A stretch of DNA of 62,822 nt, the filler included, from Asterionella formosa (taxonomy: Eukaryota): NCBI GenBank assembly GCA_002256025.1. It is 19 parts of 19 records of this genome, joined end to end, with 100 filler letters (N's around TTAATTAATTAA, not from the genome) between each part and the next. Parts side by side here need not be neighbours in the genome. Positions count along the whole stretch, not along the records: positions 34,464 to 36,263 come from NKIB01001160.1; 18 more parts are not named here. One strand, 5' to 3'. Below are positions 19,901 through 56,360 of this stretch, piece by piece (the first letter of the stretch is position 1; every line of letters starts with the position of its first letter). The notes under the pieces are model-generated. The model ran no database searches. It was not told the DNA's origin and saw only the letters and a program-made list of their open reading frames with translations. Both the position numbers and the translations under genes were made by a program.

Positions 19901-20289
19901 GGATGATCACCAACCTGTCCAGAGTACTACAACAACACTACCTGAGCCCTACAGGAAAATGCTACCTGTTTTTTGGTAGAATTTCACTGCATAATGACAA
20001 TGCATGTATTGGTGCAATCTAATGGTATCAGGTACCAGATACCAGGTACCGCTGCGTGTACTGTGCCAATATTAACTTGCTAGATTCGCCACTGCATCCC
20101 AGAAAAACCTTGCGCTGATCAGCATAGTAGTAGATGCATATTTCCCCATCCTCCCTGCCCTGCTGCTTGGTGTAAATAGTACACTTTCTGGTTTTTTCGT
20201 TCTGCAATTCCAACTTCCTATTCTTACCAAGGAACAAATTTAGTTTGGTGTCTTGGAAGGTTACTCTTATAATCAGGATCCACATCCAT

Positions 20290-20327
20290 GTTTGTTTGTT
20301 TGTTTGTTTGTTTGTTTGTTTGTTTGT
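20290..20327. repeat. (GTTT)n microsatellite
   Basis: About 9 perfect units. Confidence 0.95.
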
Positions 20328-21049
20328 CCTCAGTACCTGCTTGCTTGATTGTTGGTGTTGTTGGTTCCTAGAGCAAGCTGTTCTACATTGACATATGGTA
20401 CATTGCTTGGCTGGGTAGCCTACTAGATAGCTATACATAAGACATTTAAATACTAGCTACAACTTATATAGCAAATGTTGACTATTCCACGAGCTCTACT
20501 AAAGTAGAATCTTAGCTAGCTCGAGAATGGATCTGACATATAGGGATAGTACTGCTATGTAAACTAACCCAGATATATGATTCATCAGTTATAGACATGT
20601 TGTACAAACACAAGGCATAAGAACTTCAGAACACTTAATACAATGTCTGATCTTGATGAAGTAAGGGTATCATACAGTGATTTCCTTACGGTTACTAGAC
20701 GGTCACCTGTACTAGAAAGAAAGTAGAACTTGTGCTCTAGTAACCAGTAACTCATAAGGAAAGGATGAGTAGCTGACAACAATTGAATTCGTAAATTCGT
20801 TAAGAAACAGTATCTCAAAGTCAGCATAAAACCTGCCTGACATAAAGAAACTAATGGTTTAGAATTTTTATGTCTTGCACATGGGTACTGAAGCTAGATG
20901 ACTAGAAAGGTTCACAATGACATACAGTGCTCAAATCATCACTTTTCCAAGCCTACTAGCTCAGCCAAGCGATCGAATATAGCTAGATTAAATAATCTTC
21001 ATCTCACTCGTTTTAATCATTTTTCACTCTGTTTGTTTCTCTAAACTTG

Positions 21050-22403
21050 TTTAGGACTGATCGCCTTGGTAGCATAGGGCAGCAGATATTTCCATTTTGG
21101 TTTGCTGTTGGCATTTGTTGAAGCAAAACCACCTTTAGAAATACTGCCCCTGATCACCATATGTGCCATCATTCATGCAATCTCATCCCATGAGCATTCA
21201 TTTCAACTTTCATTTGTTGATGATTACTCACAGATTCTTTTTTGCCAATTAACCAATGATCGATTGTCAGAACTCATGATTTTACTACACATCATCTTGC
21301 AGAATTGTCTGGCCCTTTCTTTAGTAATTTTTGGATTGTCGTTTCTTAGCTGGAAATCTCACAGATTTCCGGGTTTTTGCATTGGTTCATGCACTCCCTC
21401 TCAACTTTAATGGCCAACAAAAAAAACCAGCACAACTGCCTTTTGACAGGGATGCACACAATGAGAACATGGTTTGGAGCATCCCTCTCCTCAAAACTTG
21501 CTAAATATCAGACTCTAGAGGTTCTTTGCTTGTGATTTTTCCCTTGTCTGCAGACTTATTCCTTTTTATGGCCCTTGTGATGAAGAGGCCATTGACAGGC
21601 ACATACACAACCTATTGGATTTCCACAGTGGATGATAACATTCCAAGTGAAAGACAATTTGGCATAAAATACTACAATACCCTTTTTATTAATATTTGGA
21701 AGAATACTGGCCAAGTGTTTGGCTATCATATTTGTTTTCCCCAGGCTCCTCTACACTGAACTCACAGCTTTTAGTATAGGCTATATGCCATCATCTCTGC
21801 CTGTACAACATCATAAAAATAAGTACACATTTGAAAGCATGGGAATGTGTTAGTTCATTTACTCTCCTGGTCAACATTGTTGCCATGTTTATGTTTAGTT
21901 TAATTTAATTAATGATCTTTTACCAGTAGTAGAATCCCTCAGCAACATCACATCACACATCAGTACACCAGGTACACCCGTACAGGTCGTACGAGTCGTA
22001 CTCAACGGTACTCACCAGGCAAGTTGCGGTCATTTTGCTTAAACTAACATTTTAATCTGGGAAAAAGAAGGCTAAATCTTTTGTTTCAGCAACATTACCG
22101 CAACTTGCACAGGTACACATGCCTGGTACTGTACCAGGTACCAGGTACCAAGTAGAATTTCTTGGACAATACCATTGTATACCGCAGGTTTCCATTGCTC
22201 CGTTGGTAGAATTATTCTACCAAAATGTGAAAGAAATCTACCCCAGTAATAATGGGTAGAATTTTTGCCTTTCTCCATACCATACTTTCACCACGTCCAA
22301 GCAAGGAAGGGCGGGCAATCGGACAAGTTTGACCTGTCCAGAGTAGAACACTACCGGATCCCTACAGAAAAATACTACGTCGCTAGAATTTCGTCAATAA
22401 TGT
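21050..22403 (-). mobile_element. Decayed CryptonS copy retaining its left end
   Basis: 22403-22150 is the reverse complement of 35038-35288. 21890-21050 aligns by eye with the YR ORF at 35345 (ATGGCAACAATG.., TATTTTATGCCAAAT.., ACAATTCTGCAAGATGATG) with many indels. Confidence 0.85.
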
Positions 22404-32059: not shown

Positions 32060-32463
32060 ATATTGTGCCAGTATTAACAATTAATTCTACCCCCAAAACT
32101 ACCATTTTTTGCCGTAGTGAAAGCTAGTGCACTAGTAGTTTACTAGCATGACATACAAAGCATGCACTGGAGTATGGTCTCGATCATTTTTGGCTTGGCA
32201 GTACATGTCAAATATCGCCTGTATGTAAATAGCCACAATATACCGGTTTATGCATGCTATCACATCATGCATGCGAAAATAAAATGAAGTCAGAATGTAA
32301 ATTGTAAATCAAAGGAGAATGGAATGTAAGCATGTAGTAGTTTCTTAATAGTCACTATGTAAATCTAGTTAGACACGTAGTTGTGGATGCCCACCATTGT
32401 GGCGATCTTTCAACATTTGGTTGAGAATTTGAGTAACAGTCTTCTCTGGACCATATGCCTCAT
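32060..32463 (-). mobile_element. CryptonS right end integrated in unique flank
   Basis: Near-identical reverse complement of 34638-35044 (YR C-terminus ..GGHPQLRV* plus 3' region). Similarity stops at ..GGCACAATAT near 32060. Confidence 0.9.
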
Positions 32464-34363: not shown

Positions 34364-34465
34364 NNNNNNNNNNNNNNNNNNNNNNNNNNNNNNNNNNNNN
34401 NNNNNNNTTAATTAATTAANNNNNNNNNNNNNNNNNNNNNNNNNNNNNNNNNNNNNNNNNNNNTT

Positions 34466-34732
34466 CTTTGGCAAGAATGGGAAGTTGGAATTACAGGACG
34501 AAAACCAGCAAGGATATTTACAAGGGCAGAGAGGGGGAGGACAAAATTTATCTATTATCGACGCAAGGTTTTCTGGGATACAGTGGCAGGTCTTGTTCGA
34601 GCTGGGTACACTGCACATGCTGCAATCGACCGAATCTATGAGGCATATGGTCCAGAGAAGACTGTTACTCAAATTCTCAACCAAATGTTGAAAGATCGCC
34701 ACAATGGTGGGCATCCACAACTACGTGTCTAA
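34466..34732 (+). CDS. C-terminal domain of CryptonS recombinase (5' partial, absent from the ORF track)
   Basis: Open frame LWQEWEVGITGRKPARIFTRAERG..YYRRKVFWD..AIDRIYEAYG..GGHPQLRV*. It resembles the CryptonS C-terminal (GCR1_C-like) region. Confidence 0.8.
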   Translation, partial: LWQEWEVGITGRKPARIFTRAERGRTKFIYYRRKVFWDTVAGLVRAGYTAHAAIDRIYEAYGPEKTVTQILNQMLKDRHNGGHPQLRV

Positions 34733-35012
34733 CTAGATTTACATAGTGACTATTAAGAAACTACTACATGCTTACATTCCATTCTCCTTTGATTTACAAT
34801 TTACATTCTGACTTCATTTTATTTTCGCATGCATGATGTGATAGCATGCATAAACCGGTATATTGTGGCTATTTACATACAGGCAATATTTGACATGCTG
34901 TACTGCCAAGCCAAAAATGATCGAGACCATACTCCAGTGCATGCTTTGTATGTCATGCTAGTAAACTACTAGTGCACTAGCTTTCACTACGGCAAAAAAT
35001 GGTAGTATTGGG

Positions 35013-35059
35013 GGTAGAATTAATTGTCAATACTAGCACATTATTGACGAAATTCTACC
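35013..35059. other. Joined right-end/left-end junction of the Crypton (putative recombination site)
   Basis: GGTAGAATTAATTGTCAATA-ctagcacat-TATTGACGAAATTCTACC: imperfect inverted arms around a 9-bp asymmetric spacer. The left half matches the end at 32060-32092 and the right half matches the end at 22384-22403. Confidence 0.75.
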
Positions 35060-35344
35060 AAAGTAGTATTTTTCTGCAGGGCTCCGGTAGTGTTCTACTC
35101 TGGACAGGTCAATACTGTCCGGTACCCCTCCCTTGCTTGACCGTGGTGAAAATATGGTATAGACAAAGGCAAAAATTCTACCCAGTAGTACTGGGGGTAG
35201 AATTTTTTTTCACATTTTGGTAGAATATTCTACCAACGGACCAATGGAACCCTGCAGTATGCCATGGTATTTTCCAAGAAATTCTACCACGATACAACAT
35301 GGTATGAAATGGGATTGAAGTAAAAAATTAAACTAAATATCAAC

Positions 35345-36263
35345 ATGGCGACAATGCCAACAAGAAGAGTAAATGAACCTACACAATCCCCTGTTTACAA
35401 GAGTGTCCTAATTGCTATGATGTCATACAGAGATGGCATAGAATATTCTAAAAGCTACGAGTTTAGTCCAGAGGAACTTGGGGAAGTTACACCTGAGGAT
35501 GTCTACAAATGGATGGCTATGAAAGTCTATGGCCGTCCTGATCCAAACAATGATGACAATCCAACACATGGCCGGTCTTCTTCCCTGGAATACTACAAAA
35601 AGGCATTGTCGTATTTTATGCCAAATCGACTCTCCACTTGGAATGCTATTATGCACAGTGGCAATCCAACAAGGTCTGTGCCTGTCAATAATCTCATCAA
35701 GGCAGTAAAAAAGAAGGAAGTGCGCAGACAAGGGAAACCATCACAAGCAAGGCGACCCCTAGAATCCCAAGAGTTCTCCAGTACAATGCATATCCTTCAT
35801 TCATTCAAGGACAGTATTCATCGGTATCAGTTGCCTGCACTATGTGTCTTTCAATTCCACATGGTCGGCCGAATTGACGATTGTGTGCAATTAACAAAAA
35901 TAAACCTAACTGCGAATCTTCGATTTCCTTTCACTCTGATGGCCAAGCTGTGTTGGACAAAAAACGCTAAAGAAGAGAGGGAGGCACCAAACCAGGTACT
36001 CATTGCATCCATGTCGCAAGACTATTGCGTTCTCCTTGCCTTGGCTGTTCATCTTGAGACAGAATGTATGGAACAAGGCGCATCACCTGAAAATCCATGG
36101 GTGTTTTCGCTACAAACCAACAATCCATCAAATGCTAAAAGAAAGGCCTATACAATTCTGCGTGATGATGTATGGGAAAGTAGTGAGTTCAAACGAATGA
36201 ACAATGGTTTGATTGGCACACACAGCCTTCGGAAGTACCCATCAACACATGCACGTCGAAATG
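35345..36263 (+). CDS. CryptonS-type tyrosine recombinase, 3' partial
   Basis: Uninterrupted ORF with RSSSLEYYKKALSYFMPN, GNPTRS..VN.LIK.VKK.E, catalytic R (VGRIDD), WTKN and HxxR (GTHSLRK). Confidence 0.9.
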
Positions 36264-40061: not shown

Positions 40062-40161
40062 NNNNNNNNNNNNNNNNNNNNNNNNNNNNNNNNNNNNNNN
40101 NNNNNTTAATTAATTAANNNNNNNNNNNNNNNNNNNNNNNNNNNNNNNNNNNNNNNNNNNN

Positions 40162-41282
40162 CCCTTTCGTGTAGAAGGCCTGTTCACTCTTGTTCTTGTT
40201 AGTCGTTTTGACGTCATCCCGGACATATAGATCGTAGTAGTCCCGGATGTCTGTCTTAATCTCTTCGACCGTTAGCGTGTTGCGCGCCAGGCCGAACCTT
40301 CCTACTACCAAACTCTTGTAGCTTTCAGGTAGGTTGTTGATCATGTGTGCCACATAGGCACCATCCGAAACGGCGGAGCTCGTATTGCCCAATCGTTCCC
40401 GGATTCGATCCAACTCCACATACCAGCTGTCGGGGTTCTCGTTTTCCCCTAGAGTGCACTTCGTCCATTGGTGGGACAAGGCAATGACATTCGCCATGTT
40501 GCCTGACTCATACGTAGAAATGAGCTTGTCCCATGCTTCTTTAGCATTGCCGTTAGGAAACTCGGCACTTCTTGCATTATTTACGTGTCCGAATGGCCCA
40601 GCCACTCTGGCATGCCATTATCAGACTTGCGTAAGCAACTGTGTTGCTCCTTCGGATGCGTCTCTCGTCAGCATCCGACAACACGATCGTATCGCCCTTT
40701 AGGTCTTTCTCTCCTCTTGGTAGTTCGTCACCGTTAAGTATTCCTTGAAAGTTCTTGTAGCACGCATATGCGAGAAACTTCGCTTTCCACATGTGCCATT
40801 TAGCATCTTGCCCATCGAATGTCGGCAACCTCACTGACGTGTCTTCGTCACTTCCCATGGTTCCTGAGTAGCCTGTGGCCTTAAAGTGAAACGCTTTAAA
40901 GCGTGTTGAAAGGTCTCGTACTCCTTCCCGTCTGACGGGTTCCTCTTACGTAGAACTTACCTGCTATACCACTAGTATTGTTATCTTCTTTCTGCTGCTA
41001 GCCTTCGTGCTAGTTTTCGCTATTGACCTTACTCTGTCAATTCTCACTGTTTCTTAATTATAAGATTAAACTAAAACTAAGTTTCAATCCCATTCATCAC
41101 ACTTCGAGAACCTGTTCTTCGTGTTCCCTTTTCGTTGATGTAAACCTTCTTCTGATTGATCTAAGACATCAATCTTGTTAGCAAGCTTCTTGACATGGGA
41201 ACGCACCATTTGACTCATTGGACTATAGTCGAGTCCACAGTCCTTGTGACTCATTATAGCCATTGATGCTATATTCTTGACA
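40162..41282 (-). mobile_element. Ty1/copia 5' end: putative LTR (41282-40979) and frameshifted gag (40858-40162)
   Basis: gag reads LPTFDG..WHMWKAKFLAYA..GNAKEAWDKL..NPDSWY..LPESY with one frameshift. Upstream is a ~304-bp segment bounded TGTCA..TAACA, followed by a TGGTAT PBS-like motif. Confidence 0.8.
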
Positions 41283-41469: not shown

Positions 41470-41965
41470 TTCACCTTTTATTCGACAGAGAATGCTACCC
41501 GTAGTGGAAGCTAGTGCACTAGTAATTTACTAGCACCGTGTACAAAGCCAGCACCTGATCATGAACGTTTGCATATCATCAGTACGACTATCAGGTAGGA
41601 GTACCAGGTACCCTGGTACTCTGGTACCTGGTACTTCGTCGTGCATTGCAATATATACATACATATGTGTACAGTGATTATTAACTCTATGTATTTGTCC
41701 AATACATATTAACACATTGGTAAATGAAATCAAATGTATAACAACATTAAATGGAAACAATGAGAATGTAATAACGTGCATGCTAGTTAATGTGGTGGTA
41801 GTTCACTAAATACGTAGTTGTGGCTTTCCACCTGTGCGTCGATCAATAAGCATTTTGTTGATTATTTGGGTCACTGAAAGTTCTTGACCATACACCTCAT
41901 AGATTCTGTCAATCGCTGTCTGAGCACTGTAACCACGTCTAATCTGCTCTGCAACTGAATCCCAT
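41470..41965 (-). mobile_element. Right end of a second, diverged CryptonS subfamily
   Basis: 41964-41806 reads WDSVAEQIRRGYSAQTAIDRIYEVYG..GGKPQLRI*. It shares CTAGTGCACTAGCTT(T/C)CACTACGG and a GGTAGcATT..TGTCgAATA arm with the other right ends. Confidence 0.8.
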
Positions 41966-45868: not shown

Positions 45869-47658
45869 CTACTCCGCTGCTATCGCAGCCACAGAGGCCG
45901 CTTTCTTGGCTGCCGAGCATTCCGCCATGATTTGGCTGGAGCGGGCAATCGGATTGGTGAGGTAGAAGTCGGCAATTGTGCTGGTGAAAGGCGCTGCATC
46001 CACATCGCCTGCTACGCCCAAAAGCTTGAGCTCAAGTGGGGTGTTGGCACCTGGCGCATAATCCAGACCCGCAAAGCTCGGGCTATCGGCCATCAGCTTG
46101 GCACGCAGAGCTTCAAGATTGTCATAAGGCAAGGTCTTGCCAACCAGCGCGGAGACAGCACGGAAAATCGCCCAGTCTTCACGGGCATCGCCCTTAGGGA
46201 ACACGGCCCGGCGCGCCTGTTGCACGCGGCCTTCGGTGTTCACATAGGTGGCGTTCTTTTCGGTATAGGCGGCTGCTGGCAAGATTAAATCCGCCTGTTG
46301 CGCGCCTGCATCGCCATGGCTGCCGACATAGACGACAAAGGTTCCCGCTGGGGCTTTGACTTCGTCTGCCTCCAACAGGATCAACGTATCTAGCGCGCCA
46401 GCTTGCAGCATCTGCGCGGTCGATAAGCCTTGGTCTGTGGGCAAGAAGCCCAGATCAAGCGCCCCAACGCGACCAGCGGCTTTATGGACGACATTCCAGC
46501 CATTCCAGCCTTCACGCACGATCTTGGCCTTCATACCAATCTCTGCAGCCAGCTTCAGAACTTGTGCGCCATCTGGTCGTGCGAGCGCGTCCATACCAAT
46601 GATGACCATTGGCCGCTCTGCCTTAGCAAAGCGCTTGAAGAAGTCGCCCTTGCCCTTGGCCAAATCCGCCAAAGTCTTCGGCCCTGCGCCGACATGCTCA
46701 TATGGGTAGGTCAGGTCAGTTGCCTCACCCACAACGCCAATCAAGTCCAACGTGCCGCGCAACCACGTCTTGCGCACGCGGGCATTGATAAGCGGCGCTT
46801 CCAGACGCAGGTTAGAGCCGATGATCAATAGGGCATCGGCATCTTCAATGCCCATGATGGTGGTGTTGAACAGATATTCGCCGCGCTGGCCCGACAAGCC
46901 AATGGCTGCGCCATCTTGGCGGCAATCAGTATTGGCAACGCCAAGCCCGCGTAGCAGGTCCAAAGCGGCCTTTAAGCCTTCAGAATCGCTTAGGTCACCA
47001 GCAATCGCGCCAATTTTGGTAGCATCGCCCTTCAAGCGCGCCGCAAAGGCTTCGAGTGCTTGTGGCCAGCTGACGGGGGCCAATTTGCCATTGGTCTTAA
47101 GATAAGGCTTGTCGAGGCGCTGACGGCGCAGGCCATCGACTGCATGGCGCGACTTATCCGACAACCATTCCTCATTGATCTCTTCATTGAGGCGCGGCAG
47201 CACGCGCAGCACATCATTGCCGCGCGCATCAACACGAATGTTAGAGCCGACCGCATCCATCACATCGACGGTTTCGGTCTTCTTCAATTCCCAAGGCCGC
47301 GCATTAAACGCATAGGGCTTAGAGGTGAGCGCACCGACGGGGCAGAGATCAACCACATTGGCCGAAAGCTCACTCGTCAAGGATTGCTCAAGATAAGTGG
47401 TGATTTCCATATCTTCGCCGCGGCCAATGGCCCCAAGCTCTGACACGCCAGCCACTTCGGTCGCAAAGCGGACGCATCGCGTGCATTGGATGCAGCGCGT
47501 CATCACCGTTTTGACCAAGGGGCCCATATTCTTTTCTTCAACTGCGCGCTTATTTTCGTCATAGCGCGAACCAGCGCGGCCAAAGGCCACCGCTTGGTCT
47601 TGCAGATCGCATTCCCCGCCTTGGTCGCAAATCGGGCAATCCAGCGGGTGATTGATCA
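45869..47658 (-). CDS. nuoG: NADH-quinone oxidoreductase subunit G, alphaproteobacterial, 5' partial
   Basis: NHPLDCPICDQGGECDLQDQ, MTRCIQCTRCVRF, DLCPVGALTSKPY and EEINEEWLSDK. No introns, and visibly more GC-rich than the neighbouring contigs. Confidence 0.95.
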
Positions 47659-55344: not shown

Positions 55345-56360
55345 AAGACTGCTGGGCTCAAAAGCCGCCCAAAGATGTGGCCGTGCCAGTGTCCATGCTA
55401 CACCACGTTGTTACTGAGAAAGAATGTTTGGCACCACAACATACTCAAGAAGCCAATCATCTGCAATGCCAAAATTCTCTTTCAGGACTCACTTACTAGG
55501 ACATGCTCCACCGATGCACAATGCTGCTGCCACCTTGGCATCAGGGTAGGGTAGATTGACATCAATGTTAGTGTCCACTTGCTCTTTTGATCGTTTCCAG
55601 CGACCTTGAGAGCTGATGTCATCCTGTGAGCACCCATTTCGTTGTGCATGTGTTGATGGGAATTTTTTCGTAGGCTGTGCATGCTGATTGGCCAATCGTT
55701 TAATAGGGTTTGTTCTTCGCGTTTTCTGGAGTATTGGGGCCGAGAGAAAGCAAACATAGCATAAGGATTTTGCGATGCTGCACTGGATTCCATGCCTTCT
55801 GTTTCAAGGTGGATGGCAATGGCAAGTTAAACACATTAGGTTGTTGGCATGCATCCAATGAGTAATTGATCAGGAGCTTCTCTCGCATCGTCCACATTCT
55901 TTGACCAACAGAGCCCTACAATCAGGGTAAATTGAAAACGGTCATTGGATTTAGATTTTCCTTCTTTAGTTGGACACAGTCATTGATTTGGCAAACCATT
56001 TGGAATTGGAATGTGCAAAGGGCAGACATTTCATAACAATGAATGCTGTCAGGATAGGTGTGTATTATTTTGCTAGTCGGTTTGGCATGAAGAAGGAGAT
56101 GGCTTTCTTGTAGTACTCAAGTGAAGTTGAGTGCCCCAATGTTGGATTGTCATCACAATGGATCTGGCTGACCAAAAACCTTGAGAGCCATCCATTTGTA
56201 GATGTCATCCGGTTGGATTTCAATGAGCTGCTCATCACTAAACTCATAGTCTTTACCATAGATTATTCCATATTTATAGGACATCATGGAAAGAGGAACT
56301 ATGCCATTGTATCTCTTGCATTGTCAAGGCTCATTGAACATTTGTCGTTTTCCTGTCATG
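55345..56360 (-). pseudogene. Decayed CryptonS tyrosine recombinase
   Basis: Fragments in shifting frames: DDNPTLGHSTSLEYYKKAISFFMPNRL, HSLRK, FPSTHAQRNGCSQDDISSQGRWK..LPYPDAKVAAALCIGG. Confidence 0.88.

Follow-up and report, generated by a model that had tools for sequence, protein, structure and literature searches.

Introduction

Cryptons have been known since 2003, and the loxP and FRT sites have a 13-8-13 layout. This study concerns a Crypton found in a 62,822-nt stretch of DNA from Asterionella formosa (assembly GCA_002256025.1; hereafter the window), in which 19 contigs stand end to end with N/TTAATTAATTAA spacers between them. According to PMC3212892, Cryptons carry short terminal repeats of 4–6 bp that serve as recombination substrates in a circle model; their ends are hard to define, and they are assigned neither inverted nor long direct terminal repeats. 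CryptonF elements, known from fungi and oomycetes, are described there as having a recombinase followed by a GCR1_C domain and 6-bp terminal repeats. CryptonS elements, which occur in oomycetes and Phaeodactylum tricornutum, are described as being without GCR1_C and as having 5–6-bp terminal repeats, with TATGG ends in most members, and the typical site of a tyrosine recombinase is given as 11–13-bp inverted repeats that lie 6–8 bp apart (PMC3212892). For CryptonF-1_cRei of Chlamydomonas reinhardtii, PMC9977147 reports the terminal sequence CACCG, the target CAYCG, a preference for gene-proximal intergenic DNA and clean excision, yet also a gain of copies. In a 2026 preprint, the Crypton circle is still termed a hypothesis (10.64898/2026.09.21.753150). 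No report of a Crypton end-to-end junction was found in the literature searched, subscription journals being outside its coverage.

The element described here is an autonomous Crypton with the domain layout of CryptonF and with the recombinase as its only gene. It is very probable that the two ends of this autonomous element recombined within the 7-bp sequence ACATTAT; chromosomal arrays are the favored source of the assembled copies of the resulting joint. This is no new kind of system, as Cryptons, their terminal repeats and the circle model are already established. It is unusually well resolved: one family offers, at nucleotide resolution, an exchange core, its joined form, co-varying candidate binding words, an intact 705-aa enzyme, and autonomous as well as non-autonomous partners. 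The circle-and-reinsert model thereby becomes directly testable in a cultured alga or a heterologous reporter, and the family supplies a candidate pair of eukaryotic recombinase and cognate site.

Materials and Methods

Protein collections and public contigs supplied the evidence from outside the window. Three DNA runs (X1, X2, and X9) and one RNA run (X15) were used, and their contigs were placed on contig 5 of the window (34464–36263; 1,800 nt). The counts of loose ends from these runs are lower bounds, among the loose ends listed. Six metagenome contigs (L001–L006) were retrieved with a 32-base junction pattern in which three variable positions were degenerate. A protein search provided P0151, a 705-aa relative of the contig 5 recombinase. 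Likeness to CryptonF and CryptonS was judged from published descriptions rather than from the Crypton sequences of Repbase.

Organization of the Unit

Contig 5 was permuted. It starts with the C-terminus of the recombinase and runs through the 3' region, the joint and the 5' region into the recombinase N-terminus. Its parts are the following.

34466–34732, plus strand: last 89 codons and stop codon of the recombinase, with a GCR1_C-like domain (from translation; identical to the C-terminus of P0151).
34733–35037, plus strand: 3' non-coding region up to the crossover core (98% identical to the right end of contig 3, 32368–32060, minus strand).
35038–35044, no strand: crossover core ACATTAT, which integrated copies have at each end and the joined form has a single time.
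35045–35344, plus strand: 5' non-coding region, with six of the seven copies of GGTAGAAT, a second inverted repeat and a 20-nt perfect palindrome.
35345–36263, plus strand: first 306 codons from the ATG, with R176 (GRIDD) and H293/R296 (HSLRK) (from the open frame and alignment).

A sequence-only reading of the window had proposed this permutation from the C-terminus and stop codon at 34466–34732 and the N-terminus from 35345 onward, and a 2,505-nt contig of X2 shows it independently. The X2 contig runs from 35242 to 36263, continues through 930 extra letters and then covers 34464–35016. Given that these 930 letters are absent from the window, the complete unit is 2,730 bp, which is the sum of 1,800 and 930 and also that of the 5' region (300), the open reading frame (ORF) with its stop codon (2,118) and the 3' region (312). 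Because this arithmetic closes at 2,730 bp, the unit has space for a single gene only. The recombinase ORF was the only mobility gene in the unit, with no reverse transcriptase, DDE transposase or other such gene, and GCR1_C was the sole Pfam match of P0151. Possession of a tyrosine recombinase only, together with short constant terminal direct repeats, bears out the assignment to Crypton-type elements made in that reading.

Termini and Integrated Copies

The termini of the unit were defined by two BLAST matches to contig 3 (3803–32463). Positions 34638–35044 matched 32463–32060 (minus strand), starting at the very end of contig 3, with an identity of 98.0% over 407 aligned columns, and positions 35038–35287 matched 22403–22152 with an identity of 87.5%. 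The two matches overlap by seven bases; contig 5 has ACATTAT here, and the right end of contig 3 has ACAATAT. Past this overlap, both contig 3 sequences enter DNA that is unrelated to contig 5. Two integrated copies are therefore recognized, the second of which resembles a decayed, non-autonomous type of the element that is called X-type below.

32060–32463, minus strand: copy A, an integrated copy with 98% identity that is represented by its 3' end and terminates in ACAATAT (BLAST and alignment).
19913–22403, minus strand: copy B, a decayed X-like copy with its left end, ACATTAT, at 22403 (77–87% identical to the X-type contig L005).

The flanks of copies A and B were unique in the window and the fetched loci, except for one 17-nt word. 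Moreover, loose ends were found exactly at 35044 ("behind") in at least 8 contigs (X1, 5; X2, 2; X9, 1) and exactly at 35038 ("before") in at least 5 contigs (X2, 1; X9, 1; X15, 3), with a flank consensus that varied between the runs. At least nine right-end and six left-end contexts thus break at the same two nucleotides with differing flanks. The proposal that the two ends in contig 3 define the termini is supported by the confirmed matches, the unique flanks and the loose ends at 35038/35044 in four runs. Given that the same seven bases close both ends at different places, they are constant short terminal repeats, a signature of Cryptons, rather than target duplications of variable sequence. 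The left-flank strings ended in T in four of four cases, and three of the four right-flank strings began with C; these few and partly consensus-level data hint that the preferred target may be T-ACATTAT-C.

A gene for a 1,960-aa leucine-rich repeat (LRR) protein has its start codon 478 bp downstream of the end of copy A. This gene and a Ras-family exon are part of the 9.6 kb that the two contig 3 ends bracket. The 9.6 kb was also considered as a transposon inserted in a tandem joint with a 7-bp duplication, which was rejected because it contains host-type genes and no repeat or transposon features and because the flanking copies differ in age (98% vs. 87.5%). A recurring ACCTACC in some left flanks was considered as a hidden neighboring element; the contig 3 flank is unique, and the recurrence is regarded as chance. 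In copy B, a remnant frame at 20028–20438 (minus strand) has a tandem NKQT-coding repeat where the recombinase has its low-complexity middle.

Similar to CryptonF, the element combines a tyrosine recombinase that has a C-terminal GCR1_C with short constant terminal repeats, and the position of copy A upstream of a gene start resembles the gene-proximal preference of CryptonF-1_cRei. Different from CryptonF, its core is the 7-bp ACATTAT, and it has sub-terminal inverted repeats, seven copies of an 8-mer and a joined form in assemblies. In addition, NDC10_II, which is common in the fungal cluster of the protein atlas, was found in none of 36 aligned family members at E ≤ 0.01. The element shares with CryptonS the stramenopile host (if its diatom origin holds), the recombinase as only gene, short terminal repeats and a conserved C-terminal region. 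However, the presence of a GCR1_C-like domain and termini of ACATTAT instead of TATGG set it apart from CryptonS.

The Joined Form and Its Contexts

In contig 5, one ACATTAT links the 3' end to the 5' end, and the 32-base pattern of this joint is present in six metagenome contigs, all of which have the full arm-spacer-arm arrangement. Joining through one copy of the repeat, as first read from contig 5, was thus found in contig 5 and in 6/6 metagenome contigs. The types on the two sides of the joint differed among these contigs. L002 has the autonomous type left of the joint, as contig 5 does. In L001 and L006, the left side is a decayed X-type and the right side the autonomous type, and L004 and L005 have the X-type on both sides. 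The X-type body is 72–75% identical to the autonomous type (about 27% diverged); its protein identity is 33–41% and its frames are broken. L005 contains no ORF of at least 150 aa and closes on itself through an exact 120-nt overlap of prefix and suffix, which gives an X-type unit of 3,052 bp.

One further junction was found in the window, at the 3' end of copy B.

19913–20011, minus strand: decayed end-to-end junction and about 75 bp of the following 5' end (matches 35028–35109, 72.7% over 99 columns).

Unique DNA follows this junction, which is a head-to-tail relic in chromosomal surroundings. Among the pieces listed for X2 and X9, none bridged 35022–35038, which is uninformative either way.

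Recombinase

The recombinase of P0151 was 99% identical to that of contig 5 over all 306 N-terminal residues, and the C-termini of the two were equal. An intact enzyme is present as 705 aa in P0151 and as a 706-aa ORF in L001. The 90% cluster of P0151 has 165 members, all of which are unnamed or "hypothetical." Relatives at E ≤ 0.001 fall into 2,128 representative clusters, whose full-length members are 610–720 aa long. Of the R-H-R-Y catalytic residues, R176, H293, and R296 are encoded in contig 5, and Y329, with W319, is found in P0151 and L001. H293, W319, and Y329 are invariant in 36/36 aligned members, and R176 and R296 (HSxRK) are conserved in at least 90%.

Pfam GCR1_C matched 34 of the 36 members at E ≤ 0.01 (best 1.9e-7) and scored above the 23-bit cut-off in three of eight close homologs, whereas the C-terminus of contig 5 matched it at E = 4.3e-4 and 21 bits, under that cut-off. 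Pfam Phage_integrase matched 6/36 members (best 6e-6), two PHROGs integrase families matched 10/36 and 4/36, and nothing relevant was found in NCBIfam. The nearest protein-atlas clusters, which are leads only, were a GCR1_C cluster whose few labeled members are Bacillariophyta, a fungal cluster with NDC10_II and GCR1_C, an oomycete (Oomycota) cluster and DUF3504 clusters. The family is probably CryptonF-like and of diatoms, and its host is probably a freshwater diatom.

Over the N-terminal 918 nt, contig 5 and L001 differ at seven positions, two of which change a residue (dN 0.0028, dS 0.0255, from few sites). At least 50% of the sampled words of contig 5 were present in 15 runs of several studies, and 28–47% were present in five further RNA runs. 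Contigs of the RNA run X15 covered all 30 bins of contig 5, which is a weak hint of expression, as this library may hold DNA and its contigs are without transcript ends. The intact ORF, the few replacement changes, the presence in 15 runs and the RNA-library coverage are signs of a living element, and both its present activity and its diatom origin are inferences. In viral contigs, the junction pattern had no match, and a search for P0151 relatives gave 104 pattern matches, none of which was confirmed.

Architecture of the Site around the Joint

Two overlapping symmetrical features surround the crossover core.

35013–35059, no strand: nested inverted arms, GGTAGAATT/AATTCTACC as the outer and GTCAATA/TATTGAC as the inner arms, around CTAGCACAT (whole pattern in 6/6 metagenome loci).
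34995–35073, no strand: extended imperfect palindrome of 79 nt, formed by the two sub-terminal regions (DNA fold).

The arms are more than chance would give, as a nested 9+7 inverted architecture was found anywhere in only 5/200 whole-window shuffles. The single-strand DNA fold of 34995–35075 (81 nt) had an energy of −12.4 kcal/mol (z = −4.72), and none of 200 shuffles was as good. The palindrome is centered on 35037, with the 9-bp spacer at 35033–35041 as its loop. The exchange region as set by the ends of integrated copies is 35038–35044, which lies 4 nt to the right of the center of symmetry and overlaps the right inner arm by three bases. Gaps of 4 nt (left) and 2 nt (right) interrupt the arms, and the outer-arm word recurs five more times within 240 bp. 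The description of this site as loxP-like therefore stands for the inverted arms at 35013–35059 but not for the spacer, given that the exchange region is 35038–35044 and not the 9-bp spacer.

Similar to Cre/loxP and Flp/FRT, the site combines the chemistry of tyrosine recombinases with inverted arms and an asymmetric spacer, and its 7-bp exchange region fits the 6–8-bp rule. Different from these systems, its exchange region is off-center, its arms are split and additional arm words occur away from the core. The off-center core, the split arms and the extra words give the site a closer resemblance to a complex attP than to a minimal 13-8-13 site. An attP of the lambda type likewise has a short overlap within a larger site and several binding words in both orientations, which are candidates here. 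Integrative elements of that type also integrate at pseudo-sites that share the core and form arrays of autonomous and defective members on the same site. However, the element described here is eukaryotic and nuclear, no gene for an excisionase or a bending protein is present in the unit, and a GCR1_C-like domain at the C-terminus serves as second DNA-binding domain, in contrast to the N-terminal arm-binding domain of the lambda type.

The 5' region has a second inverted repeat at 35171–35207 and a perfect 20-nt palindrome at 35217–35236. A second junction-like site was noticed at 35185–35236, which reads GTAGTACTGGGGGTAGAATT...CACATTTT...ATTCTACCAA and parallels the real joint, GTAGTATTGGGGGTAGAATT...CACATTAT...ATTCTACCAA, with an identity of 86% over the first 28 nt.

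Terminal Block and Repeated Word

The joint is embedded in a block that is shared between the autonomous and X-type elements.

34942–35289, plus strand: terminal block of about 100 bp of 3' end and 250 bp of 5' end, nearly unchanged between the autonomous type and X-type.

Over 389 nt, the terminal blocks of L001 and L005 were 99.7% identical, and about 275 bp around the joint were identical in the autonomous type and X-type of the L001 and L006 assemblies. In X2, the summed contig depth over the block was 4–8 times that of the body, a quantity that is not convertible to copy number. The borders of the block are sharp, at 34942–34968 and 35289, and several runs repeatedly show loose ends there, at 34956/34968 ("before") and at 35281/35289 ("behind"). 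The border at 35289 comes after a copy of the right half-site, as 35269–35289 is 81% like 35040–35060.

The window contains 14 copies of the 8-mer GGTAGAAT where 1.74 would be expected, and none of 100 shuffles reached 14. Twelve of the 14 copies are in element ends. Seven copies lie in both orientations within 276 bp around the joint, and those of the 5' region are at 35052 (−), 35175 (−), 35196 (+), 35219 (+), 35227 (−), and 35281 (−). Together with the concerted change described next, their distribution suggests that these words are candidate binding sites of the recombinase. A further subfamily, the W-type, has a 5' block at L004:500–815 (minus strand) with the same layout as 35038–35300, in which GGTTGAAT/ATTCAACC replaces the GGTAGAAT of contig 5. 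To the right of the core, the same-position single-base change affects all six canonical copies, and the two GTAGTA-variant copies have it as well. Such a change in every copy has the look of co-evolution between a protein and its binding sites; it is based on one sequence pair. No recombinase match was found downstream of the W-type block in the 1,849-nt contig L004.

Runs of GGTACC-based words (GGTACCTGGTACC...) were also observed in contig 3 (13280–13328 and 22100–22150), in contig 16 (56420–56450 and 56960–57020), inside X-type elements (past the block in L004 and L005) and next to several integrated ends, in the flanks. Such runs might represent a microsatellite spread through the genome, or else a landing zone that the element prefers.

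Mechanism and Origin of the Joined Form

In the proposed mechanism, the recombinase would bind the repeated words via the catalytic region and/or the GCR1_C-like domain, pair the two ends and exchange strands within ACATTAT. This exchange would release a circle that carries the joint, and the circle could re-enter at sites like T-ACATTAT-C. It could also enter at the end of a copy already in place, which would build head-to-tail arrays. The X-type, which has the same terminal block in its 3,052-bp unit, was probably moved in trans. The assembled joined form most likely derives from chromosomal arrays, with circles as transient intermediates.

Alternatively, the joint might come mainly from a free and fairly abundant circle of 2,730 bp (3,052 bp for the X-type), either a long-lived intermediate or an episome similar to a plasmid. 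Single units in permuted form are seen in contig 5 and L002, L005 closes on itself, and the relatives of P0151 are mostly on contigs of 2–4.8 kb, near the unit size. A circle is also predicted by the Crypton model (PMC3212892) and is reported, in the preprint cited above, for Starships, another eukaryotic tyrosine-recombinase transposon for which a joined-end junction was sought as evidence of a circle (10.64898/2026.09.21.753150). Starships, however, are giant elements that carry cargo and have a recombinase of the DUF3435 type, and the DUF3435 cluster was only a distant atlas neighbor of the family described here (score 0.90). A tandem array would yield identical contigs and the same closing overlap, multi-copy repeats likewise assemble to unit-sized contigs, and a rare intermediate would not assemble in seven separate assemblies. 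Moreover, the decayed joint at 19913–20011 is chromosomal, L001 and L006 join two different units (possibly through an assembler path), and the single-ORF unit has no replication or partition function. An abundant free circle is therefore rather unlikely. Given the decayed chromosomal junction and the joints after a dead partner, arrays are at least as likely a source as free circles. Taken by origin, an array source of the assembled joints is slightly better than an even prospect, free circles as the source are unlikely, and a contribution of both is somewhat less likely still.

The joint might also be internal to a tandem array or satellite of an immobile former Crypton, in which case 35038 and 35044 would be array borders or old breakpoints. 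Joints occur in all three contexts (autonomous–autonomous, X–autonomous, and X–X) and a junction remnant is present in copy B, as this explanation would have it. However, the right-end and left-end contexts share their two break nucleotides but not their flanks, which indicates site-specific exchange rather than random array borders. In addition, the ORF is unbroken, its silent changes outnumber those that replace a residue, and copy A stands alone beside host genes. We thus regard an immobile satellite as improbable.

That contig 5 is a chimera assembled from a right and a left end through their shared seven bases, as its short length (1,800 nt) and the absence of any longer sharing between its halves might suggest, is very hard to maintain, because the 32-base joint pattern recurs in six other assemblies (in L001 with 1.2–2.8 kb on each side) and seven bases are far under the word size of any assembler. 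DIRS-like elements carry internal copies of their joined ends. A DIRS/Ngaro-type tyrosine-recombinase retrotransposon whose internal region matches its joined termini would agree with the repetition of about 75 bp of the 5' end after the 3' end of copy B, but is just as hard to maintain, as one ORF fills the 2,730-bp unit, no match to reverse transcriptase or RNase H was found, and the 98%-identical copy A stops at the core without the extra 75 bp.

Several observations weigh against the reading that an autonomous Crypton recombined its ends within ACATTAT and that the assembled joints come mostly from arrays. For the enzyme, the codon of Tyr329 falls within the 930 bp absent from contig 5, the GCR1_C score of P0151 is 21.2 bits and thus under the Pfam cut-off of 23, P0151 had no match to the integrase models of Pfam and PHROGs, the family profile had no match among solved structures (best E 0.89), and the L002 copy has a frame break. 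For the site, the sequences directly beside ACATTAT are not inverted copies of each other, and the off-center crossover leaves the seating of two recombinase subunits without explanation. For the joined form, the linkage of X-type to autonomous type could be an assembler path because of the identical 275 bp, and junctions also follow the dead X-type, so that the joint is no proof of present activity. Finally, the public data used are contigs, which look alike for a circle and a tandem array, and no empty sites or de novo events were seen among them.

The 350-bp block might be a shared attachment module through which autonomous and dead Cryptons accrete head to tail, with arrays as launch pads and the switch from GGTAGAAT to GGTTGAAT marking orthogonal pairs. 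This idea is tentative and, on present evidence, doubtful. Bacterial integrative elements and integron cassettes show a comparable head-to-tail accretion. If it were true, recombination between neighboring junctions would free circles while the donor copy is kept, and such release without donor loss would explain the copy gain of active Cryptons despite clean excision. The word switch would then mark naturally orthogonal recombinase-site pairs in a eukaryote.

Other Features of the Window

Two more relatives of the element were found in the window.

41499–41964, minus strand: 3' end of a third subfamily, in contig 8 (63% identity over the C-terminal 52 aa; 94.6% over 37 nt of the 3' terminal region).
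55636–56344, minus strand: decayed relative of the recombinase with frameshifts, in contig 16 (Asn at the position of the catalytic Tyr, VDTNID).

An Rfam scan of the whole window gave no match. A Copia-type gag is located at 40114–40945 (minus strand) of contig 8, about 500 bp beyond the 3' end of the third subfamily (Pfam Retrotran_gag_2, 1.2e-11). Its proximity to a Crypton subfamily indicates that contig 8 is transposon-rich. In contig 14, a frame that is open over the whole contig (51555–53348, plus strand) matched the reverse-transcriptase domain RVT_1 (2e-27), with a GC content of about 56%, above that of most of the window. Contig 11 likewise has a frame that is open over the contig, at 45872–47656 (minus strand), for a complex-I 75-kDa/NuoG-type subunit (Molybdopterin, 7e-95; NuoG iron-sulfur domains), and given its GC content of about 58%, its source is possibly an organism other than the alga.

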